From a virus, in IMG/VR virus record IMGVR_UViG_3300012165_000002, positions 1 to 64,000 of that record: 64,000 nt of DNA; one strand, written 5' to 3'. Position 1 is the first letter of the stretch; every line of letters starts with the position of its first letter. The notes beneath the pieces are model-generated. The model had not been told where the DNA came from. It did not search any database and saw only the letters and a list, made by a program, of their open reading frames with translations. The translations under genes were made by a program, and so were the position numbers. Positions 2,662 to 60,705 of the stretch are shown here, one piece after another.

Positions 2662-3216
2662 TTATTTCTTGCGCTGAATTTTATCATGAACTTGTTGTTC
2701 ATTTTCCATAATAAAACAACTATCCCATTGGTATTTATCATATTTACTCTCAAGTTTGTTTAACCACTTAATAGCTTTTGTATGTTTGCAAGCCATTTTT
2801 GTCATCATTGTATAATCAAACGCATGATCAAGTTGTAGATCTTTACATGCTTCGCCAAGTATTTTTAATGTCTCTTTTTCCCACTCTTTCATCGTCAGCA
2901 TGATTTTTTTTACTTTTTCAACAAATGTATCGGCACTTATTGATAATGGGCTTACATTAATTTCATCCACCTTCATTAATAAGGCATCAACATACTTCAT
3001 ATTAGGAACAATACCAACTTCATGTATTGATATTCCATAATGCTTCAAATGTTTGTAGTTGCACATAGACTTTTCTGATAACTTTAATAGCTTTCTTTTT
3101 AATCCTAACGCATTAACCACATATGCTGCCGTAGAAAGCTTGTCATATGCCAAAGCACAAGCATATTCTCTGTCCATAACACGCTGATATGCACTCTTTG
3201 CTTTATTGTTGTCCAT
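2662..3216 (-). CDS. Hypothetical protein (184 aa)
   Basis: ORF-track frame; GGGGTGACTG-type RBS upstream; no motif recognised. Confidence 0.6.
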   Translation of the reverse strand: MDNNKAKSAYQRVMDREYACALAYDKLSTAAYVVNALGLKRKLLKLSEKSMCNYKHLKHYGISIHEVGIVPNMKYVDALLMKVDEINVSPLSISADTFVEKVKKIMLTMKEWEKETLKILGEACKDLQLDHAFDYTMMTKMACKHTKAIKWLNKLESKYDKYQWDSCFIMENEQQVHDKIQRKK

Positions 3217-4753: not shown

Positions 4754-5485
4754 TCAATTAGTCATTTCAATATCAGATGCATATTTCCAAATATACCCAT
4801 GATGAGTTTTCTGTTTTCCTTTACAGCACTTAGCAATATGTGACCAATCATGTCCATCGATCAATGTATCTTTCATAGTATCCCATCTTTTTATATAATT
4901 CATATCTTTATCATATTGAATAACTGGCTTTGCATTTGCTTCTCTGATTTTATATTTTGTTTCATCGCTATGATGTTTACCATAAAATCCATTTTCAATT
5001 CCATATAACCCATTCATATACCTAGGATTATCTTTACCATAAAAATGTTTCCCGTAAAAATAATTATCTTTACCATAAAGGCGTTTTCCATAAAAATAAT
5101 TTTTTTCACCTACATACAAACCTCTATTTTTCTTTGTTTTACTCATTTGTTGTTTGCTTTTTTCTGAATGTTTAAATCCACGACTTCCATATCCACCGAG
5201 GCTCATATTATATCCATTAATATAAGCATCATATTTATCTATATAATAAATCTCCAATTCATTTAATTTGTTTTCATTACAACATTCTAATATTGTAAAT
5301 TCAAAATTTTCATTACCATATTTGTTCCATGAATATTGGAGATGTTTATTATCATGTCTATTGTCATTTAAGTCCATTTTATGATGTCTCCATCTATCTT
5401 CAATATCGATACTCTGTCCTACATAAATTTTACCATTTAGCATATTTTGTATTTTATAAATCCCACATATTTTTTCTATTGCCAT
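4754..5485 (-). CDS. Free-standing GIY-YIG homing endonuclease (I-TevI-like)
   Basis: N-terminal GIYKIQNMLNGKIYVGQSIDIEDRWRHH (GIY-x10-YVG), repeated N.FYGK (NUMOD3-like) motifs, C-terminal HHGYIWKY. Sits alone between unrelated genes. Confidence 0.85.
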   Translation of the reverse strand: MAIEKICGIYKIQNMLNGKIYVGQSIDIEDRWRHHKMDLNDNRHDNKHLQYSWNKYGNENFEFTILECCNENKLNELEIYYIDKYDAYINGYNMSLGGYGSRGFKHSEKSKQQMSKTKKNRGLYVGEKNYFYGKRLYGKDNYFYGKHFYGKDNPRYMNGLYGIENGFYGKHHSDETKYKIREANAKPVIQYDKDMNYIKRWDTMKDTLIDGHDWSHIAKCCKGKQKTHHGYIWKYASDIEMTN

Positions 5486-6890: not shown

Positions 6891-6936
6891 AAATCTTCTC
6901 CTTTTTTTTTAAAATTCATAGCGAACTATGTAAAAA

Positions 6937-7008
6937 CTCTTTGGGCAGGACTCGAACCTACAACTTACGGATTAACAGTCCGTCGTTCTACCATTGGACT
7001 ACCAAAGA
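6937..7008 (-). tRNA. tRNA-Asn (anticodon GTT)
   Basis: Reverse complement folds as a cloverleaf: acceptor TCTTTGG/CCAAAGA, anticodon arm ACGGA-CTGTTAA-TCCGT, T arm GTAGG-TTCGAGT-CCTGC. CCA not encoded. Confidence 0.85.
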
Positions 7009-7014
7009 ATATTT

Positions 7015-7097
7015 AAGGGCGGTGATGGATTTGAACCACCGTGCCTTTCAGTCGTGATTTACAGTCACGCGCAATCGACCGCTCTGCCAACCGCCCT
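7015..7097 (-). tRNA. tRNA-Tyr (anticodon GTA), long variable arm
   Basis: Reverse complement: acceptor AGGGCGG/CCGCCCT, anticodon arm CGTGA-CTGTAAA-TCACG, long variable arm, T arm GGTGG-TTCAAAT-CCATC. CCA not encoded. Confidence 0.8.
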
Positions 7098-9598: not shown

Positions 9599-9784
9599 TT
9601 AATGTAGGGTATATTTCGTATTTTTTAAGTGGTTTATTCTATGTTGTGCAACAATTTCTCCAACATTGTCAAAACGTTCTTGCAAATCATTTAGCTGATT
9701 TTCAAGAGCATTTATTTTTTCTTTTAGCTCTTTGATTTCGTTTTCCAATTTTATCACCTTTCTTTGATAGATTTGATGATTCAT
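9599..9784 (-). CDS. Hypothetical coiled-coil protein (61 aa; start uncertain)
   Basis: Frame encodes IKLENEIKELKEKINALENQLNDLQERF. ATG 9784 lacks an RBS; an internal TTG follows AAAGGTGA. Overlaps the tail of 9702..10004. Confidence 0.4.
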   Translation of the reverse strand: MNHQIYQRKVIKLENEIKELKEKINALENQLNDLQERFDNVGEIVAQHRINHLKNTKYTLH

Positions 9785-10004
9785 TTGAGTATAAATAAGG
9801 ACAATTATTATCAATACATCCATTTATTATGCTACTTTTAATACTATCATCAGCCAATGCCATCTCTTCGTCTGAAACAAATTCGACTGCAAATGTGTAA
9901 TTGGTTTTTTGACATAGCCATTGGACACATCTCTCATCTATTTTAGTTTTATTATTAAAGAAATCTATTTGACATTCTGATAAAGTTAAGTTTTCATTTT
10001 TCAT
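9702..10004 (-). CDS. Hypothetical protein (100 aa)
   Basis: ORF-track frame. The basic C-terminal tail KKGDKIGKRNQRAKRKNK looks like an out-of-frame reading of the next gene. Confidence 0.5.
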   Translation of the reverse strand: MKNENLTLSECQIDFFNNKTKIDERCVQWLCQKTNYTFAVEFVSDEEMALADDSIKSSIINGCIDNNCPYLYSNESSNLSKKGDKIGKRNQRAKRKNKCS

Positions 10005-10070
10005 TTTTATACTTCTTTCTTTGATGGATTTTTTCTTTTAAAATATTAAAATATTTGCTATACTTACATT

Positions 10071-10190
10071 AGGCATGATGTGATTAAATCCACTTGGAAA
10101 CACACGTTCCCATTCCGAACACGCCGTTAAGCAAGTGGATGTTGAAAATACTACATTTTATGTGGGAAGATAAATTTTGCATTGCTGCTT
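10071..10190 (+). rRNA. 5S rRNA-like element (divergent, possibly degenerate)
   Basis: CACACGTTCCCATTCCGAACACGCCGTTAAGC (10101-10132) closely matches the Firmicutes 5S loop-C/helix-III core. It is enclosed by a perfect 9-bp helix-II-like pairing, ATCCACTTG (10088-10096) / CAAGTGGAT (10132-10140). Distal half AT-drifted; helix I weak. Confidence 0.55.
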
Positions 10191-10294
10191 AGTTCTATTG
10201 CCCAACGATAGAACGTTAAAGAAGATGCGTACTTCTTATGCACATCGCAAATGTAGCGCATTACATGATGTTGCTTTTTAGGGAGGGGTAATCT

Positions 10295-10420
10295 ATGCCC
10301 TCGATGAAATCGAAATACGGTCTGAGTTACTCCTTGGTTGGAGGGGTTATCATGACCAAGTACGAAAAAATTATGCTTGCAATCAGCATAATCATGCTTG
10401 CTGTCACTATTTTTAAATAA
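10295..10420 (+). CDS. Small hydrophobic peptide (41 aa, or 22 aa from internal ATG 10352); candidate type I toxin-like
   Basis: GGGAGGGG RBS before ATG 10295 and GGAGGGG before ATG 10352. C-terminal MTKYEKIMLAISIIMLAVTIFK is a single TM helix. Rho-independent terminator follows. Confidence 0.45.
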   Translation: MPSMKSKYGLSYSLVGGVIMTKYEKIMLAISIIMLAVTIFK

Positions 10421-10432
10421 ATAGCTTGCAGG

Positions 10433-10463
10433 AAAGAGAGATCAACCAGTTCTCTCTTTTTTT
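10433..10463 (+). terminator. Rho-independent terminator
   Basis: AAGAGAGA (10434-10441) / TCTCTCTT (10451-10458) stem, 9-nt loop, T-run to 10463. Confidence 0.75.
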
Positions 10464-10555
10464 ATCATCTTTCTTTGGTGGGATTTTGCCCCTCCATATA
10501 TGGTTAAAGTAGATATGGGTTATTTTACACTGAATTTAAGCCATTTCCCATATCT

Positions 10556-13330
10556 TCATTTGTGATTTTTCGGAAAATTTAGGCCGTTTTTTGTAAATTT
10601 AAGCCCGTACAAATTAATATTTCCATTTATTTTTTTTTCTAAATTCAACTTTTCTTCCCTATTGTTTATTAATAATTCAAAAAATAATTCTGTTTTTTGT
10701 GATGACAAAATATTAAATAGTTGTTTTGCCATATCCTTATATTCATCCAGATCAATACATTTAATTAGATAAATCATTGTATTATTATTAATACTCATTG
10801 TTTTAATTAAATTTAAAACATCATATTTTAATTCTGTCGATTTTATATATCTCTGATTTAATGACAAATTACTATCCCATATCATTTTTAATTTATAATT
10901 CAATACTCTTATTATTTTTATTATTTTATTAAACTGCTTATAATTAACATCCTTTATATTATACTTACTCAAATCAATAATATCACTAAACTTGCAAAAC
11001 TCCTCAGTTGTCTTTTTATTCCTAAACTTATTCATAGCTCGTTGTAGATAATCCATAGAGGTGTTAAAGTTTTTGTATAAAATATTTGGATTCAACTTAT
11101 ATCCGTTGTTTAGTGTTATCATTTTGAAAAATTTAGGCTTAACAAACTTACCATCTTCATAAACTCTGTATTTTTCTTTGATTTTGTTTATTTCTTTGGC
11201 GTTATCAACTTCAAACTCTTTTTTGGCACGATCTATTTCAATACAGGACATGACAGCCAGTTTGCATATGTCGAGGTATAGTTCGTTTATGCTTTCTATG
11301 GTTTCGTTATGATTTAACTTATGCCAAAACCAACTATTCAACTCCTGGCTTAAATTAATTATTTCGCCAATCTTATTTACACTCGTTCTTATATCTAAAT
11401 CGCATTGATGCTCCCAAGTATAATATCTATCTATTTTTCTCGCCTCTACAAAATTTGTAGGAATTTTAAAGTTATGATAATTTCTTTTGGCTATATCAAT
11501 TAGCAACTTTTCGTTTGATATTAATATTTGATCCGAATCAAAGTCCGCTCCGTTCAATCTTTCCAATATATTATCATTAATACTATTGATACAAACAATC
11601 TCATTAGTTAAACCAAAATACTTATCAATCTCTTCATTGTGCTTATTTACAGGCAACCATACATTGCCATTACATACATGTGGGCTACGTGAAGCAATCA
11701 ACTCTTCGCCATCATTGAAGTTTTTGCTATAAACAGCACCCACTTTAATCTCATTAGCACCATCAAACTGCCCAATCGAATGTTTCAACATTTCAAGTGG
11801 ATTGCCAAACAATACAGAGTAGTTGCCTTTAATTAAAATATGTCCTTCTCTTGAATTGTTAACATAAGACTTAATGACTTTGGCTTTAAAATCATCGTAC
11901 AACTTAGTCTCGTAAAATTTAGTATTTATTCCCATCAGTTTAAATATAATGTCGTTTTTCGTTATCGTTTCATTTTCGTCAAAAGAAATTTCGCTTTTGG
12001 GATATTTAATATGATATCTCAAAACATCGGGGTCTGTCCGTAGCAGATTTAAATAATCAATTGTGGGCTGCAAAAACTCAGTCATTTCATCAAAAGTAAA
12101 TTGTAGTGTATTTAATAGTTGATAATGGGCCTGAACAAGTTTACCATCAAAATAATGAGTCTGTTTCTCATGCTTGACTATTCCAAAATCCTCATCCAAA
12201 TTTTCAAGCCACTTTTTCATCATTTCTACTTTGTCTTTGCCAAACTTTAAATATTTTACACTATTTGGCGTTGTTATTAATTTTATGTCTTTAATATCTT
12301 CTGCCAAAGTAAATCCATTCAACTGATCGACCTGCGTAATTCCGTTGTCATCAAAAAATTTCTGTATTTTAGTTTTAAAAGAACAGGTTTTAAAAAAGCG
12401 ATTACGAAGCAGCAAACTTCCAAAGTCTTTGTAGTTTTCGAACATAGATTCGTCTAATAGCGATTGTCCGTCCCATATTGAATTGCTTATCTCAACAGTT
12501 TCGTCTTTAGCTTCAAGCCAGCCATCAATTACCTTTACAGACACAACATTGTCGTTGAATATACTGTCATAGTCATCAATTAAAAGAATATTTTCTTTTT
12601 TTATTTTTAAAATATCTATTATGCTGCTTGAGGTTAGAGAAATATAACTTTCATATGCCGCCAAATCAATCTTATCGCCAATTTTTACATTTAGACCACA
12701 ATCTTCCCATTTATGAAAAGGTGTATACAGCCTTTCGTTAATGAATAAGCACTTTCCGATACGAGAACTTCCTGAACTTCTCTTAAATCTCCTGTATTTT
12801 ATTCCGTTAGAATAAAAACCATTCTCGTACAATTCATTGCGCAGTTTAGCTACTGTCTGCAATACTTTTATATTTTTTTTATTTACAACATAACATCCCA
12901 ACTCTTCATCAAATTTAAAATAATCTCCCATCAATTCTGAATTAATATTATTTTCAACAGGCTGATTTAGCTTTATTGCGATTAATTCATCATCGACAAT
13001 GCACACATTGTCAACAAACTCGCATTCTTTCAATGTGTATTCAAAAGCTACATACACATCTTTTCCAAATTTATTATAAACCTTATTGCTATAATTGAAA
13101 TTAACATTTATAATATGATTAGTGAATTCTTTTCCGTTCTTATCAAAAAACGAAAAGTCAGACCTCCTATATACCTTTTTATAAATCTCTCTCAATTTTA
13201 TTAAATCTAAACTATAATCAAATGCGTTGAGATATTTTTTGGTATTAATCTCATTATTTTTATTTTTTATATTATATCCTAAAATTTCATCGGCATCTTT
13301 GTCTGAAATTAAGTTGTTACTTATATACAA
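10556..13330 (-). CDS. YonO-like single-subunit DNA-dependent RNA polymerase (double-psi beta-barrel, RdRP/beta-prime related)
   Basis: 924 aa. LNGADFDSDQ (DFDSD codons at 11531-11545) matches the beta-prime metal-binding signature NADFDGDQ and the DxDGD motif of YonO/cellular RdRPs. TTG start 8 nt after GAGG. Confidence 0.7.
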   Translation of the reverse strand: MYISNNLISDKDADEILGYNIKNKNNEINTKKYLNAFDYSLDLIKLREIYKKVYRRSDFSFFDKNGKEFTNHIINVNFNYSNKVYNKFGKDVYVAFEYTLKECEFVDNVCIVDDELIAIKLNQPVENNINSELMGDYFKFDEELGCYVVNKKNIKVLQTVAKLRNELYENGFYSNGIKYRRFKRSSGSSRIGKCLFINERLYTPFHKWEDCGLNVKIGDKIDLAAYESYISLTSSSIIDILKIKKENILLIDDYDSIFNDNVVSVKVIDGWLEAKDETVEISNSIWDGQSLLDESMFENYKDFGSLLLRNRFFKTCSFKTKIQKFFDDNGITQVDQLNGFTLAEDIKDIKLITTPNSVKYLKFGKDKVEMMKKWLENLDEDFGIVKHEKQTHYFDGKLVQAHYQLLNTLQFTFDEMTEFLQPTIDYLNLLRTDPDVLRYHIKYPKSEISFDENETITKNDIIFKLMGINTKFYETKLYDDFKAKVIKSYVNNSREGHILIKGNYSVLFGNPLEMLKHSIGQFDGANEIKVGAVYSKNFNDGEELIASRSPHVCNGNVWLPVNKHNEEIDKYFGLTNEIVCINSINDNILERLNGADFDSDQILISNEKLLIDIAKRNYHNFKIPTNFVEARKIDRYYTWEHQCDLDIRTSVNKIGEIINLSQELNSWFWHKLNHNETIESINELYLDICKLAVMSCIEIDRAKKEFEVDNAKEINKIKEKYRVYEDGKFVKPKFFKMITLNNGYKLNPNILYKNFNTSMDYLQRAMNKFRNKKTTEEFCKFSDIIDLSKYNIKDVNYKQFNKIIKIIRVLNYKLKMIWDSNLSLNQRYIKSTELKYDVLNLIKTMSINNNTMIYLIKCIDLDEYKDMAKQLFNILSSQKTELFFELLINNREEKLNLEKKINGNINLYGLKFTKNGLNFPKNHK

Positions 13331-13423
13331 GTCTTTGGCCTCAGCAGTTAGGATATATACAGACTTTTTTTTAATTATAATGTTTCACTCCAATGCAATA
13401 AATTTTATAAAGCAAGAACTACA

Positions 13424-14223: not shown

Positions 14224-17200
14224 TTATAATCCACATTTTGAATATCCACAATTATGACATGTTTTACAACCTTCCGACATTTCTGCCTCACATCCACATT
14301 CGGGACATACATTGTTTATTATTGTGGCCTGTAGAGAAGACGTAATATTTGAAACGCTGCAATCTTCTACGTCATCACCAAACTCTTCTTGAACCTCATT
14401 ATACATATCTTTGATTGCATGAGCTATCGCACTAGGACAACATATCCCTCTTGAAGTATCGCACTTTGTTGATCGCCTTACCAAATATGAAGGACACGCA
14501 GGAACACTAAGCAACTGATCTATTGCATAATCAAGACTCATGCCCGTTCTTAGCGCACCACTTAATATACGAGATAATCCAACCATATACGAATTGCAGC
14601 CTCCACTACTTCCATGATCAAGAAATACTTCATATAGTGTGCCATCTATTTTATCAAAGAAACAATGAACATGAACAGAGCCACAACCCGTTACAATCTT
14701 TCGCTTTCTGCCAATTAAATCGTCTGAAGAATTTAGCGTTGTTCCCCAAGGTAGATTTTCTACTCTATTCGGTTCCAACTTAACACTATCTTCGCTTATA
14801 CTGGTCAAAATACCACTACGACTACAGTTGTCTCTATATAAAGTCAACCCCTTTAAGCCCGATTCCCAAGCCAACATATATAAATCTTCAACTTGATCCA
14901 CTGTAAAATCTTCTGGAACATTGACTGTTGAACTAATAGAAGCGTCTATATGCTTTTGCCAAACTGATTGCATTGCCACTCTGTCTTTATAGTCTAATAA
15001 CATTGCGTTGGTAAAAAAATCAGGGAGCATACTTTCGTCAGATAAATTAAATTGATCCATAAACTTTTTTACTATAGGTGTGTACACAGTGTAATATACA
15101 TCTTCGCCGTGTAATGATTCAGTTTTTCGTTTATATCCGTAATTGTAAATCGGTTCTATACCACCGGATATTCCCAGCATGGTTGATAGTGTGCCTGTAG
15201 GAGCGCATGTTAAGAGCTGACTATTTCTCAATCCATACCTCATAACAATATCTTTTGTATCCACAGATGCATTCTCAATGAAAAACGGACTACTTAATAC
15301 GGCATCCCTGTTGTATTTGGGGTAACAACCAAACTCTTTGGCCAGTAAGGAAGAACTTGCTAATGCTTGGTCGATCATTATTGATGCTATACGATTACAT
15401 AATGATGATGATGTCTGGCTTCCATATTTGATTCCCATTTTTATTAACATATCACTTAAGCCAAAAATTCCCAAACCAATTTGTCGCCAATCCCTAACAC
15501 TGTCTTGCTGCTCTTGAAGTGGATGTAGTGGCAAACCTTCGTCCAGCACATCGTTTAATGCTTTTACAGAAATATCTACAGTCTTTCTAAAATCTTCATA
15601 ATTAAAATATACAGCTTCACTAAATGGATTTACTACAAATTCAGATACATTTATACTTCCGAGTAAACATGAACCTCCACTTGGGAGCGGCTCTTCGGCG
15701 CAATTATGAACAATTATTCCATCAACCACACCCCAATGAGTTAATGGTTCTGTAAAATCATAAACAGTTTCAATTCCTAAATGTTTAATTGACTTAACAT
15801 ATGGCGATCTTTGAATAATTACACATTTTAATGCCTCTGTCTTATAGGAGTGTATGAAGTTGATTTTTTCATAAAAAGTTATTATATCTTTAATGCGGAC
15901 TATATTTAAATCATAACTTTCTTTGCACCGATATGTTCCATTATCAAATTTATTATTTTTTGATTTATTTGTTGTTATATATGAATGTATGCCAAAATCA
16001 TTTAATAAAGTATATTGCAATTGTTTGATAAAATCTTTACAAATAGACTTATATGCAATTCTCCCACTGCTGATAACACTACCATTGGCAGAAAAGCATC
16101 CTTTCAAGAAAGATTTCTTCTGCTCTAAACTCCATAAATCATAAGTTTCAGGAAGCAATCTTATAAACATTGTGTTGTGAGAAAATTCTAATTCTAAAAG
16201 CTTATCTTTATAATCATACAAACAAATTGCTCTATTATTTTTAAATTTAAAATTGTCATCAGAAAACAAATTTAAAACTTCAGAATCTTTTGCACCAATA
16301 TTAACAGTTATATATTCTACACTTTTGTCCAAATCATTTAATTGTCCGTCACCTTGTATGAATCCAAGTTTAACATATAAATTGTCATACATATTGTCAT
16401 TATAAATTAGTGGCATTACTCTTTTATGATATAAATCCTTAGCTTCGCATTGTTCGCCATTATTTAGTAAGAAAATATGATTGGGAGTGCATTTAATTAT
16501 TCTGCCATCTTCAAATTTTACACTCATTACTTCCTTTTCGCCACTATTCCAAACTCTGCTTTCAGAAATCTGTCCATCTTTATTAATTATTTTTATACTT
16601 TTTCCTGCAAGCTCATTAAATGTTTTATACCCTTCTGTTGTCAACAACTTCATATCGCCTGTAAAGCATGGATTAACACCGGCATATTCGAAGTTTTCAT
16701 CTTCAGATAATAAACTCCAACTTTTTATCCTGTCCCACATTAAAAATCCAGGCTCTGCCATACTCCAATTGCTTTTAGCAATTTTATAAAATAAATCTCT
16801 AGCATTGACTATCTTCGAAATAACTTCGCCCGTTTCTTGTCTTGTATAACTCATTTCCCAATCTAAATCATTTTTTACAGCATTCATAAAGTCGTTTGTT
16901 ATTCTTATAGATATATTGGCTTTTGTAATTCGTTCTAAATCATTTTTTACTTCTATATATTCTTCCAAGTCTGGATGATTGCAGTCTAACGAAATCATTA
17001 ATGCTCCCCTACGATTGTTTTGACCTATTAGTCCAGTAACTAATGAATATAAGTCCATAAAACTTACTGCGCCTGTTGTTGAATGTGCGGCGTTATTGAT
17101 CTTGGCGTTACGTGGGGATAACTTTGATAAATCAATGCCACATCCACCACCATAAGAAAATGTTCTAGCTAACTTTGTTGCACATGCAAATATTGATTCC

Positions 17201-17481
17201 AGGTTATCTTCTGGTGGTTCAATTACATAACAATTGCTGAGCGAAATTTTTCGTCCTTCATTTTGTAATCCTCTGTTTGCCAGTATCCTTCCACCAAACA
17301 GAAATTTCTTATCTATAATTAACTGCCTAACTTCATTGTCACTACCAGACACCCTATCTAGCCACTTTTCGAATGTTTCATTCTCGTATTGGTATTTATT
17401 CCTCCATATATCTACCGCTAATTGCGAATCCAACCAATCACATTCGTTTATCACTTGCGTTTTGTTATCAATTGTAGTCAT
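14224..17481 (-). CDS. nrdJ: Class II (adenosylcobalamin-type, NrdJ-like) ribonucleotide reductase containing an intein
   Basis: After removing the intein, the junction reads GVNP-CAEEPLPSGGSCLLGSIN, matching the class II active-site signature NPCGEQPL..SCNLGSIN. Cys-rich C-terminal tail CPECGC..CKTCHNCG. Confidence 0.85.
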   Translation of the reverse strand: MTTIDNKTQVINECDWLDSQLAVDIWRNKYQYENETFEKWLDRVSGSDNEVRQLIIDKKFLFGGRILANRGLQNEGRKISLSNCYVIEPPEDNLESIFACATKLARTFSYGGGCGIDLSKLSPRNAKINNAAHSTTGAVSFMDLYSLVTGLIGQNNRRGALMISLDCNHPDLEEYIEVKNDLERITKANISIRITNDFMNAVKNDLDWEMSYTRQETGEVISKIVNARDLFYKIAKSNWSMAEPGFLMWDRIKSWSLLSEDENFEYAGVNPCFTGDMKLLTTEGYKTFNELAGKSIKIINKDGQISESRVWNSGEKEVMSVKFEDGRIIKCTPNHIFLLNNGEQCEAKDLYHKRVMPLIYNDNMYDNLYVKLGFIQGDGQLNDLDKSVEYITVNIGAKDSEVLNLFSDDNFKFKNNRAICLYDYKDKLLELEFSHNTMFIRLLPETYDLWSLEQKKSFLKGCFSANGSVISSGRIAYKSICKDFIKQLQYTLLNDFGIHSYITTNKSKNNKFDNGTYRCKESYDLNIVRIKDIITFYEKINFIHSYKTEALKCVIIQRSPYVKSIKHLGIETVYDFTEPLTHWGVVDGIIVHNCAEEPLPSGGSCLLGSINVSEFVVNPFSEAVYFNYEDFRKTVDISVKALNDVLDEGLPLHPLQEQQDSVRDWRQIGLGIFGLSDMLIKMGIKYGSQTSSSLCNRIASIMIDQALASSSLLAKEFGCYPKYNRDAVLSSPFFIENASVDTKDIVMRYGLRNSQLLTCAPTGTLSTMLGISGGIEPIYNYGYKRKTESLHGEDVYYTVYTPIVKKFMDQFNLSDESMLPDFFTNAMLLDYKDRVAMQSVWQKHIDASISSTVNVPEDFTVDQVEDLYMLAWESGLKGLTLYRDNCSRSGILTSISEDSVKLEPNRVENLPWGTTLNSSDDLIGRKRKIVTGCGSVHVHCFFDKIDGTLYEVFLDHGSSGGCNSYMVGLSRILSGALRTGMSLDYAIDQLLSVPACPSYLVRRSTKCDTSRGICCPSAIAHAIKDMYNEVQEEFGDDVEDCSVSNITSSLQATIINNVCPECGCEAEMSEGCKTCHNCGYSKCGL
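15703..16668 (-). mobile_element. Intein (322 aa) with LAGLIDADG homing-endonuclease domain, inserted at the catalytic-Cys loop of NrdJ
   Basis: Begins CFTGDMKLLT (Cys1 codon 16666-16668) and ends IIVHN (Asn codon 15703-15705), followed by +1 Cys. LAGLIDADG-like motifs LGFIQGDGQ and LKGCFSANGSV. Confidence 0.85.
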
Positions 17482-27941: not shown

Positions 27942-28055
27942 AATATTTTACAATTTTGACCGATAACTTATATGGTGCCAACTTTCCGTTTTTACGCGAG
28001 CCTGTCACGGTTTACGTGTAATTTTAATCATCTAAATCCACATTTTTATAATCCA

Positions 28056-28084
28056 AGTATATCACATAAAAATTCCGTTGTCAA
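28056..28084 (-). promoter_or_regulatory. SigA-type promoter reading leftwards into the helicase-like operon
   Basis: Minus strand: TTGACA (28084-28079), 17-nt spacer, TATACT (28061-28056), with TG one base upstream of the -10. A weaker twin (TTGACA 27840-27835 / TTTAAA) shares the extended box AATTGACAACG. Confidence 0.55.
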
Positions 28085-28662
28085 TTACATTTCGGTTACA
28101 TCTCCTATTATATTTGAAACGATCAGACAACGACATTCCCCAGCCGTTACGTGTGGCATTTGACACACAATTCGACATTCGTTCCTTTAAAAAATAAAAA
28201 AAAGAAAGGTTTTGACCTTAAAACTATAACAGCCAGTAACTTCCGGTCAGCCAACCAGAAGAAGATTGCCTGTAACAAAAAAAAAGGAAATGATGGACGG
28301 TTCAGCTATACACTCAAGCATTGTAACCGTTTCAGCTTCAAAGGTCAAGACCGTGGGGATACCCCACACCCCGCTTAACTCTCGGTTAAGCTAAAAGATC
28401 TTTTTCCAGTAGACATGTATGTCTTTTGCCACTCATGTTTATAGCTATGTAAAGGTATCCCCCGCCCAGTAAGTGGCTAAACAGAAATGTGCCGGTTAGA
28501 GGCATTTCGTTTATCGAATGTTTCAAATATAATATAGGTGCTTCGACCCGATGTCGCTCAAATCCGCATGTCACCAACGTTCCGCTACATCTAAGCTTAA
28601 TCGCTCGCCCATTGAACAATCAATCGCTTGGCTCCGTTTCGGCTCAAAGTTAGGCTGTGAGC

Positions 28663-28806
28663 TGAGTGTAAGATTGGAAATATTGGGAAATTGTTTGGTT
28701 AATTGTGAAAAAGTGTAGGAATAATGAGGGAAAGTTGATTTTTGTGAGGAAAGTTTGAGAATGGGGAGATTTTTTGATTGTGGAGGAGAGAATGGGGATG
28801 TGATAT
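28663..28806. other. 144-nt tract with no C on the plus strand
   Basis: Direct count: no c between c28662 and c28807. Contains GAGAATGGGGA twice (28757-28767, 28788-28798; 31-bp spacing). Confidence 0.95.
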
Positions 28807-29095
28807 CGATGTAAAGGCCGATATAGGTGATTCGGAATCGGAATTGGTTGAGAGTGTCGAGAAATATGGACTGGAGGGCTTTGGTCTTGCCAACCTGCCA
28901 TGGGATATGCGAACGCACCCGCCGGTGCGCAAACCGGTATGATTTACGTGATTTTTGTAACCAGTTTATGACGGCTTGCGACGTGTGGGCGTGTCGTGCA
29001 TCCGCTTGTCACGTGCATATCGTCGCAACGTTGTGTCGTGCTATGCCCACATGTTCGGCCCTAGCCTCCTTTTCTCCGATGGGCTGCTTTTGAAG

Positions 29096-29282
29096 CCTTA
29101 CAATACATCATTTATTCCCTTCATTCCCTCTATTCCCATCATTCAATCCATTCTTTCTACTCATTCACTTCAATTTCTTCCCATTATTCACCCTTTTCAT
29201 TTATATTTATCCATTCATCCTTTTCAATTCATTCAAACTACACCAAATTTTCAAACAATTATCCTTCAAACTATCCAATACA
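29096..29282. other. 187-nt tract with no G on the plus strand (mirror of 28663-28806)
   Basis: Direct count: no g between g29095 and g29283. At least six CATTC/TCATTC copies, the complement of the GAATG motifs in the left tract. Confidence 0.95.
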
Positions 29283-29713
29283 GTTATCAATACTGCGTTA
29301 TTCGTGATCCAGCGGCATTTATTTAATTACGGCGAATATTCCGACAATTCATCCCGTCAATCTGTACAATTTACGCTTTAACGGCGGCTATTTTATCGTT
29401 ATATGCTGCCACAATCGTTTTAGGGCGCTGCTTGATACAATGTACCAACGACATCTATCGTCGCTCTACGTGCATCCTGTGACCATACGGCGGCATACGG
29501 CGCTTAACGGCGACGGCTGTAACATATGTTTGTGTCATATTGCACTAGCGGCATGCTGTTTTATTGTGCACATTGCTATATTTTCTATGCGGCTTGTTTT
29601 TGTCGTGTTTTTGCTTGTGTCGTTGCTTACATATGTGAGATAATAACATCCTAACAGTTAATTGTTAGGGCAACGGCACGGCCAATGATGCCATACATAA
29701 AGGAGATACAACC

Positions 29714-30679
29714 ATGAAAAAGGCTAATTATTTAGACAAATTGAACAAGTCCATAGAGACTTGCAAGCGCAATATCATGGCCGAAAACAAGCGGCCACAG
29801 CCTGACCACAGGGTTGTCAAGTCCACGCTTGACAGGCTTGCAAAGCTGACAGCGGAGGTTGAAGCGTTACAGGCAACAAGCACCGACAGCTTGATTGTCA
29901 GCAAGGCAAAGCAAGCTGTATATGTAGCATGTCGTACGATACACGCCAAAACGGGCGACAAGCAAGTCGAGTCTGTCATGCTCAACTTGTACATGTCAGA
30001 CAGGTTTGATGATACTATGGGTGTATCATCGGACTTGTTGGGCGTGGCTGCATTAGCTATAGTCGAGACGGCGCAAGCAAGCAATCTTGCGCTTGACAGT
30101 TTCTTGGCGTGTGAGTATTACGACATGCCGTATCGGCAGTACACTAACAAGAATGGTCAGGAGGCGTACCACACGCCTTTTAGCTGGACATTGACACAAA
30201 TCAACAAATCTATTCACGCTCAAAAGACAGGGCGTGGACGTAAGACAGTATCAAATTACGCCGTTGTGCGTGATGCTGACTGTCACGTATATAATGCAAT
30301 CAGCGGGGAGTTGACGGGGATTGAAACATTTGAAACCCGTCAAGTAGCTGTGACAAGCTCATACGCAATAGAGCTTGTCAGCCTTGACGCTGTTATTGAC
30401 GGCGCTGGACTAGACGCAAGCTCTTACGACATTGAGCGGGATAGCTCAATGGACTTAGAGAGGTTATACATGTGTAAAAACCTCTCACCGCAGGAAAAGG
30501 TTATCTTTGATATGCTCCAAGACGGCCTCAAGCAGGTTGAAATAGCTGACTTGCTCAAGAAAAAGATGACTACCATCAATACGGTAGTCAATCGAATCCG
30601 TACCAAAATAGCCAACCTCCAATGTGGAGAAGGCTATGCTTACAACTATGACGTTGTGAGCAAGTACCGGACGAAATAA
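29714..30679 (+). CDS. DNA-binding regulator with C-terminal sigma-70 region-4 / LuxR-type HTH (possible phage sigma-like factor)
   Basis: 321 aa. LSPQEKVIFDMLQDGLKQVEIADLLKKKMTTINTVVNRIRTKI matches the region-4/LuxR HTH pattern. AAAGGAGATACAACC RBS. G+C content clearly above the rest of the window. N-terminal 250 aa unrecognised. Confidence 0.6.
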   Translation: MKKANYLDKLNKSIETCKRNIMAENKRPQPDHRVVKSTLDRLAKLTAEVEALQATSTDSLIVSKAKQAVYVACRTIHAKTGDKQVESVMLNLYMSDRFDDTMGVSSDLLGVAALAIVETAQASNLALDSFLACEYYDMPYRQYTNKNGQEAYHTPFSWTLTQINKSIHAQKTGRGRKTVSNYAVVRDADCHVYNAISGELTGIETFETRQVAVTSSYAIELVSLDAVIDGAGLDASSYDIERDSSMDLERLYMCKNLSPQEKVIFDMLQDGLKQVEIADLLKKKMTTINTVVNRIRTKIANLQCGEGYAYNYDVVSKYRTK

Positions 30680-30685
30680 ACAACA

Positions 30686-30712
30686 ATTCCCCTGCAATGG
30701 GGAATTTTTTTG
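30686..30712 (+). terminator. Rho-independent terminator
   Basis: AATTCCCC (30686-30693) / GGGGAATT (30700-30707), followed by a T-run. Confidence 0.8.
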
Positions 30713-30730
30713 TGCAAAATTATTTTAAAT

Positions 30731-30763
30731 CCTTGTAGTAGTTTGGCTTTTGCCGTTGCTTAT
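30731..30763 (+). repeat. 33-bp direct repeat, copy 1
   Basis: CCTTGTAGTAGTTTGGCTTTTGCCGTTGCTTAT, identical to 30848-30880. Confidence 0.9.
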
Positions 30764-30847
30764 ATTGTGCAGGGCTTTCACACACGCCTTGTGGCACACG
30801 CCACACGCTACTTTTTTTTCACCAAAAAACTTTCAAAAAAGTTTTTG

Positions 30848-30880
30848 CCTTGTAGTAGTTTGGCTTTTGCCGTTGCTTAT
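30848..30880 (+). repeat. 33-bp direct repeat, copy 2
   Basis: Identical 33-mer 117 bp downstream of copy 1. The near-palindrome CAAAAAACTTTCAAAAAAGTTTTTG lies between the copies. Confidence 0.9.
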
Positions 30881-31150
30881 TTAGTGAGAGGCTTTTTTGC
30901 TCTTACTTCTCCGGCGGCTTTTCAGTCGGGTCAGTTGTGGGACACGTCGCAACAGTTTAGACGTTTGCTTAAAACGTGGTCAGGTTTACGGATTGTCCTA
31001 CAAAATCCGATGTTTGCAAACTACAGTTTCACGGCGGTGAGTGGTTGCGGATTAAACGCAATGTAGGCTTGTGAATGCCCTCACAGTAAAGCATAATACT
31101 TAACCTTGCGCCAAAAATGTGCTAGGCAAGAATTTGCCTGTAAATGCAAA

Positions 31151-31251
31151 ACGGAATTCTACCTATAAATTGGCTACGTTCTACGAGTGTGGCCATGTGG
31201 GCAGCTGACGGAATTACAGTCCCGTTCTACGAGTGGGATTGTACGGAAATT
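31151..31251 (+). repeat. Bipartite repeats ACGGAATT ... CGTTCTACGAGTG
   Basis: ACGGAATT at 31151 and 31208 (ACGGAAATT at 31243). CGTTCTACGAGTG at 31177-31189 and 31223-31235. Confidence 0.8.
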
Positions 31252-31346
31252 GGTTACTGAATGAAGTTTTACAGGAGCGTGCAAAGAATTGCCGAAAATG
31301 ATGAAAAAACCGGCCTTGTGGTTATGAGACGCAAGGCTTTAAAATG

Positions 31347-31388
31347 CCGCATCAGCTTTTTAGGTGTAGAATTCAAATTCAAATGCGG
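31347..31388 (+). ncRNA. 42-nt nested-hairpin element, copy 1 (structured RNA or DNA palindrome)
   Basis: CCGCAT..ATGCGG outer stem and GAAT(T)/(A)ATTC inner stem. Compare with copy 2. Confidence 0.45.
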
Positions 31389-31416
31389 CTTCATTAAAAA
31401 ATAGGAGGAAATAAAA

Positions 31417-31563
31417 ATGAAAAATAATTTAAAAGAATGTACATTGGTAGAATTACAGGCAGCTTTTGACGAAATATTTGTCAACGGCTGGGATCTTGCT
31501 GACGTGTCCATGGAAATGGATGCAAACAGGATTTTTTCTGAGATTCAGAGAAGAAAAGCCTGA
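31417..31563 (+). CDS. Hypothetical small protein (48 aa)
   Basis: TAGGAGGAAATAAAA RBS, ATG 31417; MKNNLKECTLVELQAAFDEIFVNGWDLADV.. Flanked by the two 42-nt elements. Confidence 0.5.
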   Translation: MKNNLKECTLVELQAAFDEIFVNGWDLADVSMEMDANRIFSEIQRRKA

Positions 31564-31571
31564 ATAACTTA

Positions 31572-31613
31572 CCGCATCGGCTTGTCAGGCGTGGCGTTCA
31601 AACGCAAATGCGG
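31572..31613 (+). ncRNA. 42-nt nested-hairpin element, copy 2
   Basis: Same length and outer stem as copy 1. The inner stem is GCGT/ACGC, so two base pairs changed in a compensatory way. Confidence 0.45.
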
Positions 31614-31667
31614 TTTAGGGTTTGGCCATTGATCCTCAAAATGGCATACATATGAAAGGGGAACAAC

Positions 31668-32456
31668 ATGAATAAGAAATTTGAGAGCATCCAAGAATTC
31701 TTAACAACAAATGAGGCCAGAATAGCCTATGAGAATGCGCTGGGCGATGATAAGGCATCTGAAATTGCAAAAACTAAGGCAATTTTAGATGAAGCGTTAA
31801 AGGTTTTCAATGAGAAAATTATTGGTATGCAGTATGATGACATTCTAATCGAGTGTCAGACAGATCCAGAAAGCAAAAACCCGACATTAAAGGCGATTAC
31901 ATTAGGATCGCTTGTGGCTTATGGTTGCAAACCTAACAAAAAGACCGGAATGGTCGATTTTGTTGAAAAAATGGTAATCATCGACTTGCATGACTTAAAT
32001 GCAAGAGCGAAGAAAATTAACAGAGATACAAAAATATTTAATAACCCAAGTTGGGTTTATTGGGTAGAAGCGCTGAATCACGCTCTTTTTGAGGAGCGGA
32101 AGGGAAGTTCAGAAATCAAGTCCCTCTCTGACAAGTATGAGACATTTAAAATCACAGAACCAGCAAGGGAATTGAAAATCGATTTTTCAACAATCGCAGG
32201 GAAAACAAAGTGCATTCAGGCTGTAATGGATGCTATTTTGTTTGCTCCTTATGTAGGTAAAGACGGCAAGGAAGACGAAACGAAAAATCGGTACAAAGTC
32301 CTTACGAAACACGCAAAAACGTTGAATGATAACTATTCGACGTGGAGCAGAAAAACGAAAACCGGAATCGTATTGCCTACAGAGGGCGCATTTCGGCAGC
32401 AATTGATGCGAATTCTGTTCTCAATAGTGACTGGAACGGAATTCAAGGCTGAGTAA
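31668..32456 (+). CDS. Hypothetical protein (262 aa), first large gene of the rightward arm
   Basis: GAAAGGGGAACAAC RBS; own terminator downstream; no motif recognised. Confidence 0.7.
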   Translation: MNKKFESIQEFLTTNEARIAYENALGDDKASEIAKTKAILDEALKVFNEKIIGMQYDDILIECQTDPESKNPTLKAITLGSLVAYGCKPNKKTGMVDFVEKMVIIDLHDLNARAKKINRDTKIFNNPSWVYWVEALNHALFEERKGSSEIKSLSDKYETFKITEPARELKIDFSTIAGKTKCIQAVMDAILFAPYVGKDGKEDETKNRYKVLTKHAKTLNDNYSTWSRKTKTGIVLPTEGAFRQQLMRILFSIVTGTEFKAE

Positions 32457-42698: not shown

Positions 42699-43280
42699 AT
42701 GAGAGTTTGTGATGTGTGCGGCACAAGAGTATTTTTAAATTCACATACAAATTTTTCACACAATCTTGGTGTGACTTTTTGGAGAATGAGAAACAAAACC
42801 AACAAGGAAAAGGCAGAGGAATTTATATATTGCATCTTTGATGATTACTCTAAAAAATATCGAAAGGAAAGTATTTTTGAAGTTATGGAATGCACTAGCC
42901 ATTATGTAAATATGATTCCTGAGTTGTGGGATGCTATTGAAGATTTAGTATCATCAGAATACAGCGATTATCAAAAATGCAAATTGAAATATCCAGCAAA
43001 ATATGATTATTCAAAATTCCAATACGAAATAAAAGGTGTGCGTGGGGTATATGCTACAAAGAATTTGGATATAAATAATACAATTATAACGGAGATCTTT
43101 GATGAAAGTGGAAAACGTATAGGTTTGCTTTATCCGAATGAGCGTGGAGAAGAATATACTAAAGAGGAAATTGATATTTGGTATCGGGGATATAAGCAAG
43201 GAAAATTGAATGGTAAAAACGAAATAAGAAATGCTATGTATAACGCTTTGGGAATAAGCGAGTTGATACATAATAATTGA
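42699..43280 (+). CDS. Hypothetical protein (193 aa)
   Basis: ATG 42699 behind GAGAGGGGAATATAAA; N-terminal CDVCGT. Confidence 0.6.
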   Translation: MRVCDVCGTRVFLNSHTNFSHNLGVTFWRMRNKTNKEKAEEFIYCIFDDYSKKYRKESIFEVMECTSHYVNMIPELWDAIEDLVSSEYSDYQKCKLKYPAKYDYSKFQYEIKGVRGVYATKNLDINNTIITEIFDESGKRIGLLYPNERGEEYTKEEIDIWYRGYKQGKLNGKNEIRNAMYNALGISELIHNN

Positions 43281-43288
43281 AAGGAGAA

Positions 43289-44803
43289 ATGAAAGTGTTT
43301 AGAATCGGAGACAAAATAATGATAATTGAAGCGGGAGATGGAGCGAGAGGGTGTAATGGGCGCATTGGAATTGTTACTAACAATCCACATGTGTGTGGTA
43401 TACATGCAAACAATCGAGGATTCAATGTAGAATTAGAATCCGGTGTTTATGATCCGGATGAAAAAGAAGTGTGGCGAGTAAATCATGATGGAAAATATAC
43501 TTTGATGGAGGGAAATGATATCATGTCAAATGAAGATGAATTTGTGTGTTTAGATTGTGGAGCAATTTACGATAAAGTTGATGGTCACTCCTATGAAGAT
43601 GGATATCTTTGTGACGATTGCTATGAAGATTATTTCATATGTGAGGATTGTGGAGAAACTTATAAGAAAAGTGACGGTTATTCTTATGGTAATGGATATA
43701 TTTGTGAAAGCTGCTATGATGATGATTATTTTACATGTGAGCATTGTGGCGGTATTCATTATCATGATGATATGGCTACTGTAAATCCCAATAGCTGTTA
43801 TATAGAACATGTGTGTATGGCTTGTGCAGAGTCATATTACTATTTCTGTACTGAGTGTGATGAATGGTATTCTTATTCATTTATGTGGGTGACTGGAGAT
43901 GATTGTATTTGTGTCAACTGTTCAGATCTTTACACAAGGTGTGATGATTGTGATGCTGTAATATTGTGTGAAGATGCTTGTGGAGGTGACTATAGTACTT
44001 ACTGCGAAAGTTGTTTTAATGATAGACAATACCGTTCCCTACACGATTATGGTTATAAGCCAGATCCGAATTTCTTAGGAGAAATGGATGACAATTTATA
44101 TATGGGAATTGAATTGGAAGTTGATAAAGGTGATGGAATAATGGATTGTTGTGATGCAATACAAGAAATTACTGATGATGTATATATGAAAGAGGATGGA
44201 AGTATCAGTAACGGATTTGAAATCGTATCTCATCCAGCAACAATTGAATACCACATGACTGAACTTCCTTGGGAATCCATCATGAAAAAGTGCATAGAGT
44301 ATGGATTTCGAAGCCACGACACAACGACATGCGGAATTCATGTTCATGTAAGTAGAAAATATTTTGGAACAGCGCTTGAGACGCAGGATTTAAATATAGC
44401 CAAAGCTATTTTATTGATAAACAGGTTTTGGGATACTCACATTACAACTTTTAGCAGAAGAAATTATAGTAGTTTGATTCATTGGGCAAAGAAATCTGAA
44501 TTGATATTGGAGCCAGATGATACAACGGAAAAATTGATTTACAAAATGAAAGATGAAAATTGTCGTGGAGACAGATATATGGCAGTTAATTTGCAAAACC
44601 GCAACACAATTGAATTCAGGATATTCCGAGGAACGTTAAAAATAGATACGTTCTTTGCAATATTACAATTTGTAAAAACGATTTGCGAATTTGCAAAGGG
44701 AGTAAGTTTGCAAGATATTGATGGGACAACGTGGAATGACATCTTTGGAAATTCGGAATATGAAGAATTAAACGCTTATAACAAGTCGAAGGATCTTAAT
44801 TAA
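43289..44803 (+). CDS. Amidoligase-family protein 1 (glutamine-synthetase-like 'putative amidoligase' domain) with SH3-like domain and five zinc-ribbon modules
   Basis: C-terminal motifs MGIELEVD, EDGSISNGFEIVSHPAT, TCGIHVHVS, RYMAVNLQNRNTIEFRIFRGTL. Start is ATG 43289 or GTG 43295, after AAGGAG at 43281-43286. Confidence 0.75.
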   Translation: MKVFRIGDKIMIIEAGDGARGCNGRIGIVTNNPHVCGIHANNRGFNVELESGVYDPDEKEVWRVNHDGKYTLMEGNDIMSNEDEFVCLDCGAIYDKVDGHSYEDGYLCDDCYEDYFICEDCGETYKKSDGYSYGNGYICESCYDDDYFTCEHCGGIHYHDDMATVNPNSCYIEHVCMACAESYYYFCTECDEWYSYSFMWVTGDDCICVNCSDLYTRCDDCDAVILCEDACGGDYSTYCESCFNDRQYRSLHDYGYKPDPNFLGEMDDNLYMGIELEVDKGDGIMDCCDAIQEITDDVYMKEDGSISNGFEIVSHPATIEYHMTELPWESIMKKCIEYGFRSHDTTTCGIHVHVSRKYFGTALETQDLNIAKAILLINRFWDTHITTFSRRNYSSLIHWAKKSELILEPDDTTEKLIYKMKDENCRGDRYMAVNLQNRNTIEFRIFRGTLKIDTFFAILQFVKTICEFAKGVSLQDIDGTTWNDIFGNSEYEELNAYNKSKDLN

Positions 44804-44824
44804 AAAAAAAGGAGAATGATTATT

Positions 44825-45742: not shown

Positions 45743-45762
45743 AACAAAAGGAGGAAATTGAA

Positions 45763-52160: not shown

Positions 52161-52367
52161 ATGACATTATTTTGGATTATAATATTGTTTTGGATTTGGT
52201 GTAAATCTTATAAAACGCCATATCAGAAATACCAAGAGCAGCATCCTGAATTATTTCCACCACCAGAGCCGTTTCATATTGTAGAATATGAATCGTGTGA
52301 TGAACGATTGGCGGCGGCTATCCGCAGATTTAATAATGTTGGAAAACCTAAAGATGAATGTGAGTGA
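52161..52367 (+). CDS. Small membrane-anchored protein (68 aa)
   Basis: AAAGGGGTGAGTGG RBS; N-terminal helix LFWIIILFWIW. Confidence 0.5.
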   Translation: MTLFWIIILFWIWCKSYKTPYQKYQEQHPELFPPPEPFHIVEYESCDERLAAAIRRFNNVGKPKDECE

Positions 52368-52373
52368 AATTGA

Positions 52374-52401
52374 TTTGGTACCGGCACAAATGTCGGTACC
52401 A
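52374..52401 (+). terminator. Hairpin upstream of the MazF-like gene (terminator or regulatory)
   Basis: TTGGTACCG / CGGTACCAA 9-bp stem, 10-nt loop, no U-run. Confidence 0.45.
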
Positions 52402-52433
52402 AACTATATTATAATAGGAGGTTACATAACAAA

Positions 52434-59888: not shown

Positions 59889-59910
59889 TGCTTGAAAGGA
59901 GAAAATTAAT

Positions 59911-60099
59911 ATGACAACTAATCAGCTTAATAAATTATTTTGCAAACATAAATATGATATATTTTTAGAGCAACATATTATTAATAGTGGTATGGATAAA
60001 CTCATATATAGAAAATGTTCTAAATGTGGAAAAATTACATGTGGCAATATTGATTATTGGTTTAAAAAGGAGAATGATTATGCAATATGTATTAAATGA
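59911..60099 (+). CDS. Hypothetical zinc-ribbon protein (62 aa)
   Basis: GAAAGGAGAAAATTAAT RBS; CKHK..CSKCGKITC. Confidence 0.55.
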   Translation: MTTNQLNKLFCKHKYDIFLEQHIINSGMDKLIYRKCSKCGKITCGNIDYWFKKENDYAICIK

Positions 60100-60691: not shown

Positions 60692-60705
60692 TAAAGGAGG
60701 AAAAC

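Follow-up and report, generated by a model that had tools for sequence, protein, structure and literature searches.

The first 64,000 nucleotides of the IMG/VR record IMGVR_UViG_3300012165_000002 (hereafter the window, by which the whole 64-kb stretch is meant) come from a phage, and at positions 10071-10190 of their plus strand, within a block of genes encoded on the minus strand, lies a sequence that resembles 5S ribosomal RNA (rRNA). The locus raises the question of whether this sequence is truly related to 5S rRNA and, if it is, whether it serves the phage or is a piece of bacterial DNA caught by accident. An earlier note, made from the sequence alone, had pointed out the resemblance and proposed several roles for it. 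The first part of the question can be answered plainly, in that the element is a genuine homologue of 5S rRNA which adopts the 5S fold. The answer to the second part is more tentative and is developed below from the way in which the element has diverged, from the cassette in which it is found and from the distribution of that cassette among related phages.

Homology to 5S rRNA

The element was delimited by a covariance-model match and by its minimum free energy (MFE) fold. When the whole window was compared with 4227 Rfam families, the 5S_rRNA model (RF00001) matched positions 10076-10185 of the plus strand over its full length (model positions 1-120) with a score of 52.4 bits, the gathering score of the family being 38, and E = 4.6e-8. 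This match is far above chance and confirms that a 5S-like sequence is present on the plus strand of a minus-strand gene block, as the earlier note had claimed; on the minus strand there is no RF00001 match at the element. Elsewhere in the window, only tRNA-Asn and tRNA-Tyr (anticodons GTT and GTA), located at 6936-7097 on the minus strand, give Rfam matches above the gathering score. No rRNA operon surrounds the element, as phage genes occur on both sides of it and no 16S or 23S rRNA fragment is found in the window.

The features that had first drawn attention to the resemblance, the 32-mer CACACGTTCCCATTCCGAACACGCCGTTAAGC (10101-10132) and the 9-bp pairing of ATCCACTTG with CAAGTGGAT (10088-10096 with 10132-10140), are present as quoted, the latter forming a continuous helix II. 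The MFE fold of 10071-10190 has the Y shape of 5S rRNA, with 34 canonical pairs and with helices I through IV reproduced, and a three-way junction joining helices I, II/III and IV is seen in both the MFE and the centroid folds. Helix I had been described as poor (about 5 bp), which is wrong since eight of its nine consensus pairs form, four of them as G-U pairs of which two are also G-U in genuine Bacillales 5S rRNAs, and four additional pairs (GGCA/UGCU) lengthen the helix to 10072/10189. With this extension helix I comprises 12 bp (10072-10083 with 10177-10189), in agreement with the limits of 10071-10190 originally given for the element. Helix III consists of 3 + 4 bp in the MFE fold, helix IV is a 6-bp hairpin (10151-10156 with 10160-10165), and helix V, with five of six pairs, is found only in the covariance-model alignment.

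Two Firmicute 5S rRNA genes from plasmid-borne rRNA (rrn) operons, those of Brevibacillus laterosporus (82.5 bits) and Peribacillus simplex (105.6 bits), were used as comparators. At 52.4 bits versus 82-106 for these two genuine 5S rRNAs, the phage copy is strongly diverged. A three-way alignment with them defines a conserved beta-domain core at 10097-10132 of the plus strand, consisting of loop B, helix III and loop C, which differs from the corresponding part of the B. laterosporus 5S rRNA by the deletion of a single A in helix III and is otherwise identical to it. If only the columns in which both genuine Bacillales 5S rRNAs agree are counted, 31 of 33 are kept in the core, as compared with 14 of 28 in the gamma domain (Fisher p = 1e-4) and 26 of 56 in all of the non-core columns (p = 3e-6). 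The GC content is 0.51 in the core and 0.32 outside it, the background of the phage being 0.29-0.32, whereas genuine 5S rRNAs have a GC content of 0.60-0.63 in their non-core parts and 0.59-0.60 overall. Changes from G/C to A/T account for 19 of the 32 changes at conserved columns, so that the AT drift previously remarked on for the sequence outside the core is real.

The element resembles Bacillales-type bacterial 5S rRNA in its full-length match above the gathering score, its three-way junction, its core and the tandem U-G/G-U of helix I, which is retained. Apart from its lower score and non-core GC content, it differs from Bacillales 5S rRNA in lying outside an rrn operon, in being followed by an mRNA-like part with an open reading frame (ORF), in having a shortened helix IV, and in lacking both the bulged A of helix II, which is present in the two genuine 5S rRNAs but gives way here to uninterrupted pairing, and the loop E consensus (the bL25 site), where AUGGUA/GAGAGUA has become AAAAUA/GAAGAUA. 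Of the loop E/helix IV layout perceived in the earlier note, the helix IV hairpin thus stands but the loop E consensus does not. In helices I and II, 17 of 18 pairs are canonical and many of these have changed on both sides relative to the genuine 5S rRNAs; a rough binomial estimate, which presumes an ancestor similar to the comparators, gives a probability of ~2.5e-4 for such pairing if about half of the sites had changed without compensation. Ribosomal protein uL18 contacts 5S rRNA at positions 29-30 and uL5 contacts it at positions 42-43 and 57-58 (PMC7812874), and these positions fall within the core that is retained in the phage element. The core is therefore intact while the rest of the element is fully ameliorated yet paired.

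The cassette and its distribution

The earlier note had treated the element as an isolated antisense RNA. Its location on the plus strand holds, but it is not free-standing; rather, it constitutes the first ~120 nucleotides (nt) of a mobile ~430-bp plus-strand cassette that also contains an ORF and a terminator. The cassette lies in a gap of 550 nt (10004-10556) which has no minus-strand ORF of at least 40 amino acids (aa). Its promoter side abuts the start of a 100-aa minus-strand ORF (9702-10004), and on the other side it is convergent with the minus-strand gene for a YonO-like single-subunit RNA polymerase of 924 aa (10556-13330). The presence of this polymerase gene next to the element, also claimed in the earlier note, is borne out by matches to phrog_8308 and phrog_4291, a GADFDSD motif, the occurrence of PF05183 in homologues, and YonK, YonJ and YonV neighbors in relatives. 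A search by sequence found no relative of the polymerase in the PDB.

A promoter-like site at 10037-10064 of the plus strand consists of TTTAAA and, after 16 nt, the extended -10 sequence TGcTATACT (10056-10064), with 9 of 12 positions matching and the TG present. Transcription from this site would be predicted to start at about 10071-10072, which is the first base of the extended helix I, and while the promoter is plausible the call is weak. Immediately 3' of the 5S-like domain is a 9-bp hairpin (10192-10214, plus strand) that has no U-run and is not a terminator. Farther downstream on the same strand, 10255-10279 forms a weak hairpin (-4.4 kcal/mol) that is followed by a run of five T (T5, 10275-10279) and is an attenuator at most. 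Next come a strong Shine-Dalgarno (SD) sequence, AGGGAGGGG (10280-10288), and an ORF for a 41-aa peptide, MPSMKSKYGLSYSLVGGVIMTKYEKIMLAISIIMLAVTIFK (10295-10420), both on the plus strand. The cassette ends with an intrinsic terminator (10430-10464, plus strand) whose 12-bp stem (-12.8 kcal/mol, z = -2.1) leads into a U-run on the plus strand and has none on the minus strand; a simple terminator scanner missed it, apparently because its loop exceeds the 3-8 nt limit of that program. Since no strong terminator is found between the 5S-like domain and the small ORF, the cassette is probably transcribed into one plus-strand RNA of ~390 nt that carries the 5S-like domain at its 5' end.

The C-terminal half of the 41-aa peptide is hydrophobic, and the SD sequence and start codon of its ORF are enclosed by a hairpin. 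A second, internal SD sequence with an ATG is present at 10340-10354. No homologue of the peptide was found in Pfam, PHROGs, NCBIfam, GenBank phages (tblastn), IMG/VR or an index of 5.8 billion proteins. A direct repeat of 17 nt within the ORF (10369-10406, plus strand) gives rise to a duplicated IMLAIS/IMLAVT motif.

Members of a family of 25-34-nt repeats, referred to here as D1, precede successive small minus-strand genes and bound the cassette. The left copy (9998-10031) comprises the ribosome-binding site and start region found before minus-strand genes, while the right copy (10452-10485) has no gene start behind it and marks the right edge of the ~430-bp insertion; a third copy in the window is at 9741-9774. 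These repeats look like the recombination points of a hyperplastic region.

The phage that carries the cassette is SPbeta-like, has a genome of ~149 kb and presumably has a low-GC Firmicute as its host. A host with genetic code 4 (a Mollicute) was considered and ruled out, as TGA is used as a stop codon. The sequence recurs base for base in five assembled contigs (ENA, JGI and Logan), one of which is 148,644 bp long, and this excludes an assembly chimera. A scan of metagenomes had a sole find, a recombinant allele (L015) that is identical to the window through the promoter-like site, the 5S-like domain and the hairpins to ~10274, and is homologous but only ~55-60% identical (by eye) over the SD, ORF and terminator part beyond that point. 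The hairpin region at 10255-10279 hence marks the end of the identity. The L015 peptide is 41% identical to that of the window only if a +1 frame shift is assumed, and the hairpin that occludes the SD sequence and start codon is present in both alleles, built from different bases. D1-type repeats also occur in L015, in reverse complement, at ~2805-2835 and 2993-3020. A 55-kb Logan contig (SRR6448494) ends at window position 10271, which is the boundary between the 5S-like and ORF modules, and this fits the presence of both alleles in that sample.

Relatives of the phage were located through their versions of the RNA polymerase and of the 100-aa ORF next to the cassette. The closest of these in polymerase identity (90%), L001 (IMG/VR) and L016-L018 (same sample series), lack the cassette and have ~90-100 nt at the junction instead of the 550-nt gap; L001 has a single D1 copy there. 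Gene order around the junction differs among the window, L001 and L015. The cassette is likewise missing in relatives whose polymerases are less similar (69%, 53%, 46% and 34% identity). Conservation in related phages had been proposed in the earlier note as a check on the element, and its outcome is in part unfavorable since the nearest relatives lack the cassette as a whole. Because the outgroups are without it, gain of the cassette in this lineage by recombination at the repeats is the parsimonious explanation, with loss from L001 through recombination between the repeats as a possible alternative. The putative promoter and the terminator of the cassette, its orientation opposite to the surrounding genes, and its presence/absence polymorphism among close relatives are all features of phage morons.

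A parallel is found in a 176-kb human-gut phage (MT835469.1) that is related at the 46% level, in which a GOLLD RNA (12365-12855; 172.6 bits, gathering score 150) and three tRNAs lie directly downstream of the YonO-like polymerase gene, the position that the cassette occupies in the window. RNA genes thus seem to accumulate in the region that follows the polymerase gene.

A literature search found no report of a phage-encoded 5S rRNA, which upholds the statement in the earlier note that none was known to be described. A blastn comparison of the region with 50,697 GenBank phages gave nothing, near or distant, and among the 2.9 million contigs of IMG/VR there was no other match to exact or relaxed patterns of the core. 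Broader Firmicute 5S patterns were found in only four IMG/VR contigs, none of them comparable, and four further matches to an 18-mer are at chance level. One of the four contigs, IMGVR_UViG_2724679199_000003, has a GC-rich, Bacillus-type 5S rRNA at a predicted prophage edge (4873-5040), with two tRNAs following it and an internal tandem duplication of ~77 nt that contains the core twice; the duplication could be real or an effect of assembly. In a second, IMGVR_UViG_3300031853_002777 (11740-13395), the 5' quarter of the 5S rRNA is replaced (38.8 bits) and an insertion sequence (IS)-type DDE transposase, a tRNA and a serine recombinase adjoin it, so that an IS appears to have inserted into a host 5S gene at the end of a prophage and truncated it. 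The matches in the remaining two (L022 and L023) are at contig ends, a position which was the sole reason for taking them to be host flanks. The exact core 31-mer and a relaxed 26-mer had no match in 185,579 species genomes, with the caveat that rRNA genes are missing from many metagenome-assembled genomes. The element is apparently the first phage-borne homologue of 5S rRNA.

Possible roles of the element

The reading that we favor, although it falls short of being probable, is that the element is a selectively retained mimic of 5S rRNA that forms a ribonucleoprotein (RNP) at the 5' end of an accessory transcript. A copy of a Firmicute 5S gene would have resided in the phage for a long time and diverged strongly, and the cassette would have entered by recombination between repeated gene-start sequences in the hyperplastic region downstream of the polymerase gene. 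Transcription of this accessory (moron) unit would yield, in order, the 5S-like domain at +1, two hairpins, the hydrophobic ORF with its occluded SD sequence, and the terminator. Selection would have preserved the Y shape together with the core of loop B, helix III and loop C, and released loop E and the rest. The RNA would then recruit one or more 5S-binding proteins without serving as a standard ribosomal 5S rRNA, and the resulting compact, nuclease-resistant RNP at the 5' end may stabilize the transcript for the downstream small membrane peptide, gate its production, or both. Several observations point in this direction. The full-length Rfam match, the 5S fold, the canonical pairing kept in helices I and II, the placement of the terminator after the ORF, the SD hairpin of both alleles and the recurrence of the sequence in five independent assemblies are in line with it. 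The intact core and the ameliorated but still paired flanks suggest that purifying selection has acted on the fold as well as on the region contacted by uL5 and uL18, the contrast between the kept core and the released loop E suggests a protein-binding mimic rather than a normal ribosomal 5S rRNA, and the location of the domain at the predicted +1, together with its probable co-transcription with the SD-occluded ORF, favors a role as a 5'-terminal RNP.

Several points weigh against this proposal. The folding energy of the 120-mer is unexceptional in comparison with shuffled sequences (z = -0.88), so the evidence for the element resides in the covariance-model match and homology and not in stability. 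In folds of the longer transcript a 12-bp alternative helix opens helix I by pairing its 5' strand (10072-10084) with AUUACAUGAUGUU at 10260-10272, just before the T5 and the SD sequence, and this pairing could be a switch or could be due to chance. Binding of uL18 is uncertain without the bulged A of helix II, which contributes to L18 binding in Escherichia coli. Changes in the helices that appear to be compensatory could have been inherited from an AT-rich donor, and the 5S-like domain is identical in all six copies, leaving no variation from which covariation might be judged. Promoter-like motifs are not enriched in the window (13 versus 11.5 expected), and the coding evidence for the small ORF is modest, given the frame shift that must be assumed and only two synonymous differences. 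Finally, the cassette is dispensable, as co-occurring, near-identical phages are without it.

The main rival, possible though doubtful, is that the element is a non-functional relic, derived from host rrn DNA or from a displaced 5S gene that was caught by illegitimate recombination and is now decaying as a passenger of a small-peptide cassette, with a promoter-like motif that is fortuitous. The earlier note had listed a decaying captured fragment among its options, and much of the divergence is as such a fragment would be expected to show: a score 30-50 bits under that of genuine Firmicute 5S rRNAs, the predominance of G/C to A/T changes (19 of 32), a degenerate loop E, and a 1-nt deletion in helix III that is found in none of the 185,579 species genomes. 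The absence of any counterpart of the cassette in relatives, its polymorphism among co-occurring phages and its uniqueness among the IMG/VR contigs and GenBank phages searched would also suit a rare accident. There are precedents in bacteria, where displaced stand-alone 5S genes and 5S pseudogenes, including ones with accidentally acquired control elements, occur in chromosomes and plasmids (Stepanov and Fox 2021, PMC7812874). The phage element is like these displaced genes in lying outside an rRNA operon, in having foreign promoter and terminator elements, in its association with mobile DNA and in its uncertain functionality. The displaced bacterial copies, however, are either near to the 5S rRNA of the host itself or truncated, whereas the phage copy is of full length, lacks a close counterpart in cells and has selectively retained its core. 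Neutral decay poorly explains the retention of 31 of 33 core columns when about 50% of the columns in the fully ameliorated remainder have changed, and helices I, II and IV still pair. Moreover, the element is complete, its start coincides with the predicted +1, and neither 23S nor any other rrn sequence is left beside it.

It is unlikely that the element functions as a genuine, alternative 5S rRNA or as a decoy in trans, in which case the domain would be cut out of the transcript, with RNase M5, for instance, cleaving at the extended helix I. Such a phage-expressed 5S variant would bind uL5 (and uL18) and either enter the central protuberance of new 50S subunits, so that ribosomes are modified by the phage, or sequester 5S-binding proteins and thereby stop ribosome assembly in the host, and these outcomes are as improbable as the release on which they depend. 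The full-length topology, the intact uL5/uL18 contact region and the extension of helix I 4 bp beyond the mature ends are what one would expect of such an RNA, given that helix I is likewise extended beyond the mature ends in Firmicute 5S precursors. Genuine 5S rRNAs that are AT-rich, as in reduced genomes, can likewise have a gamma domain that looks drifted, and the phage has other genes that deal with RNA (tRNA-Asn, tRNA-Tyr, two RNA ligases, a polynucleotide kinase and a MazF-like RNase). Loss of the loop E consensus and of the helix II bulge argues against this role, as do a score well under that of the two genuine 5S genes, the absence of a ribosomal protein gene from the 128 window ORFs that were compared with Pfam, the dispensability of the element and its restriction to one lineage, and the lack of a strong terminator or a recognized processing site 3' of the domain. 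The more specific suggestions of the earlier note fare no better, since the degenerate loop E makes a decoy for L25 unlikely, and the low score speaks against a ribosome-modifying role, as do the changes in helix II and loop E.

Slightly less credible still is the possibility that the element is the leader of a type I toxin-like or ribosomal protein-sensing unit, in which the 5S-like fold and the long-range pairing with 10260-10272 would be alternative states that control, in the manner of a riboswitch, read-through or access to the SD sequence. Antisense read-through from the polymerase gene might, with as little likelihood, act as the antitoxin to a toxic membrane peptide. This idea draws on the small hydrophobic peptide with an SD sequence that is occluded in both alleles, on the structured long untranslated region (UTR; z = -4.4 over 400 nt) and on the 12-bp helix that competes with helix I. 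In addition, SPbeta-type prophages carry the type I modules bsrG/SR4 and yonT/SR6 (PMC5848175, PMC8309996), with which the cassette shares a small hydrophobic peptide, a structured mRNA, an occluded SD sequence, and the same phage group and region. Unlike those modules, the cassette has no homology to known toxins (its peptide matches no toxin family) and no identified antisense RNA gene, a motif scan having found no antisense promoter, and the modules for their part have no known 5S-like leader. Alternative pairings also arise easily in AT-rich RNA. As for the sensing of ribosomal proteins, leaders that mimic rRNA exist in the operons of L20, L10, S15 and similar proteins, and like these the element is an rRNA-like, protein-binding type of fold in a 5' UTR, upstream of a sequestered SD sequence. 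The known leaders are short, convergent mimics of a single site and regulate ribosomal protein genes, whereas the phage element is a full-length homologue by descent and precedes an orphan membrane peptide. A ribosomal protein autoregulatory leader was accordingly rejected, as the downstream ORF is an orphan and the Pfam scan detected no ribosomal protein domain in the window.

An artefact or DNA-level site (an assembly chimera with a host 5S gene, a phage attachment site (attP) core for such a gene, or a minus-strand anti-5S sequence) is essentially excluded, for although the 5S-like matches in the other viral contigs were read as host flanks and the window has a tyrosine recombinase gene, five assemblies made with three pipelines have the same sequence, it occurs in a recombinant allele as well, phage sequence flanks it on both sides, its core is in none of the species genomes, the recombinase gene is 43 kb away, and the SD sequence, ORF and terminator of the plus strand define the orientation.

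The genomic setting and its significance

Other minus-strand genes near the cassette encode an exonuclease, a dUTPase and an intein-containing ribonucleotide reductase, the intein of which has a LAGLIDADG domain and lies in the large subunit gene (14224-17481). The same block contains a free-standing GIY-YIG/NUMOD homing endonuclease gene (4754-5485, minus strand) and thus several selfish elements. An RNA-repair set on the plus strand (57918-63655) consists of a T4 Rnl1-like ligase (57918-59888) interrupted by an intein/LAGLIDADG element, an Rnl2-like ligase (60706-62013) and a polynucleotide kinase-like protein (62735-63655); together with tRNA-Asn and tRNA-Tyr, these genes suggest a response to anticodon nucleases of the host. 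A MazF/PemK-like endoribonuclease toxin gene (52434-52772, plus strand; Pfam E 2.7e-27) is preceded by an ORF of 68 aa that could encode its antitoxin, the two spanning 52161-52772, and the tyrosine recombinase gene (53448-54341, plus strand) lies ~700 bp downstream of it.

Farther from the cassette, the strand-switch region between the divergent gene blocks (28000-32000) has a GC content of 0.425, compared with ~0.32 elsewhere, and contains a sigma factor-like ORF (29714-30679) and a sub-threshold match to RAGATH-16 (31015-31086; 33.9 bits, gathering score 65.6). At 43277-47031 of the plus strand, two paralogous proteins with amidoligase_2 domains (508 and 422 aa; phrog_16683) flank an ORF of 308 aa that has no match.

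The element has features in common with phage tRNAs, tmRNA and GOLLD, all of which are structured or host-type RNAs from accessory regions of big phages, and the tRNAs of the window itself are 3 kb away from it. Phage tRNAs are common, are conserved among relatives and have demonstrated uses, whereas the 5S homologue is limited to one lineage so far and its function is putative. It can be described as a host-type translation RNA in a phage or, equivalently, as a displaced 5S gene.

Among the genes known from phages are those for tRNAs, tmRNA and a small number of ribosomal proteins, and here a homologue of a ribosomal RNA joins them. If the element is no more than a relic, it documents the capture of rrn DNA by an SPbeta-like phage and the speed at which unconstrained parts of such DNA are ameliorated. 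Were it a ribosomal variant or decoy after all, 5S rRNA would become the first known case of a virus-encoded ribosomal RNA. If the element is expressed and binds 5S-binding proteins, it would represent a novel means by which a virus acts on the ribosome or takes over a ribosomal fold, as a module that stabilizes or regulates an accessory gene, and it would also offer a natural experiment on the parts of 5S rRNA that are needed for each interaction, as only the beta domain is preserved. Phages with and without the cassette co-occur in one sample series, which makes the question directly testable.

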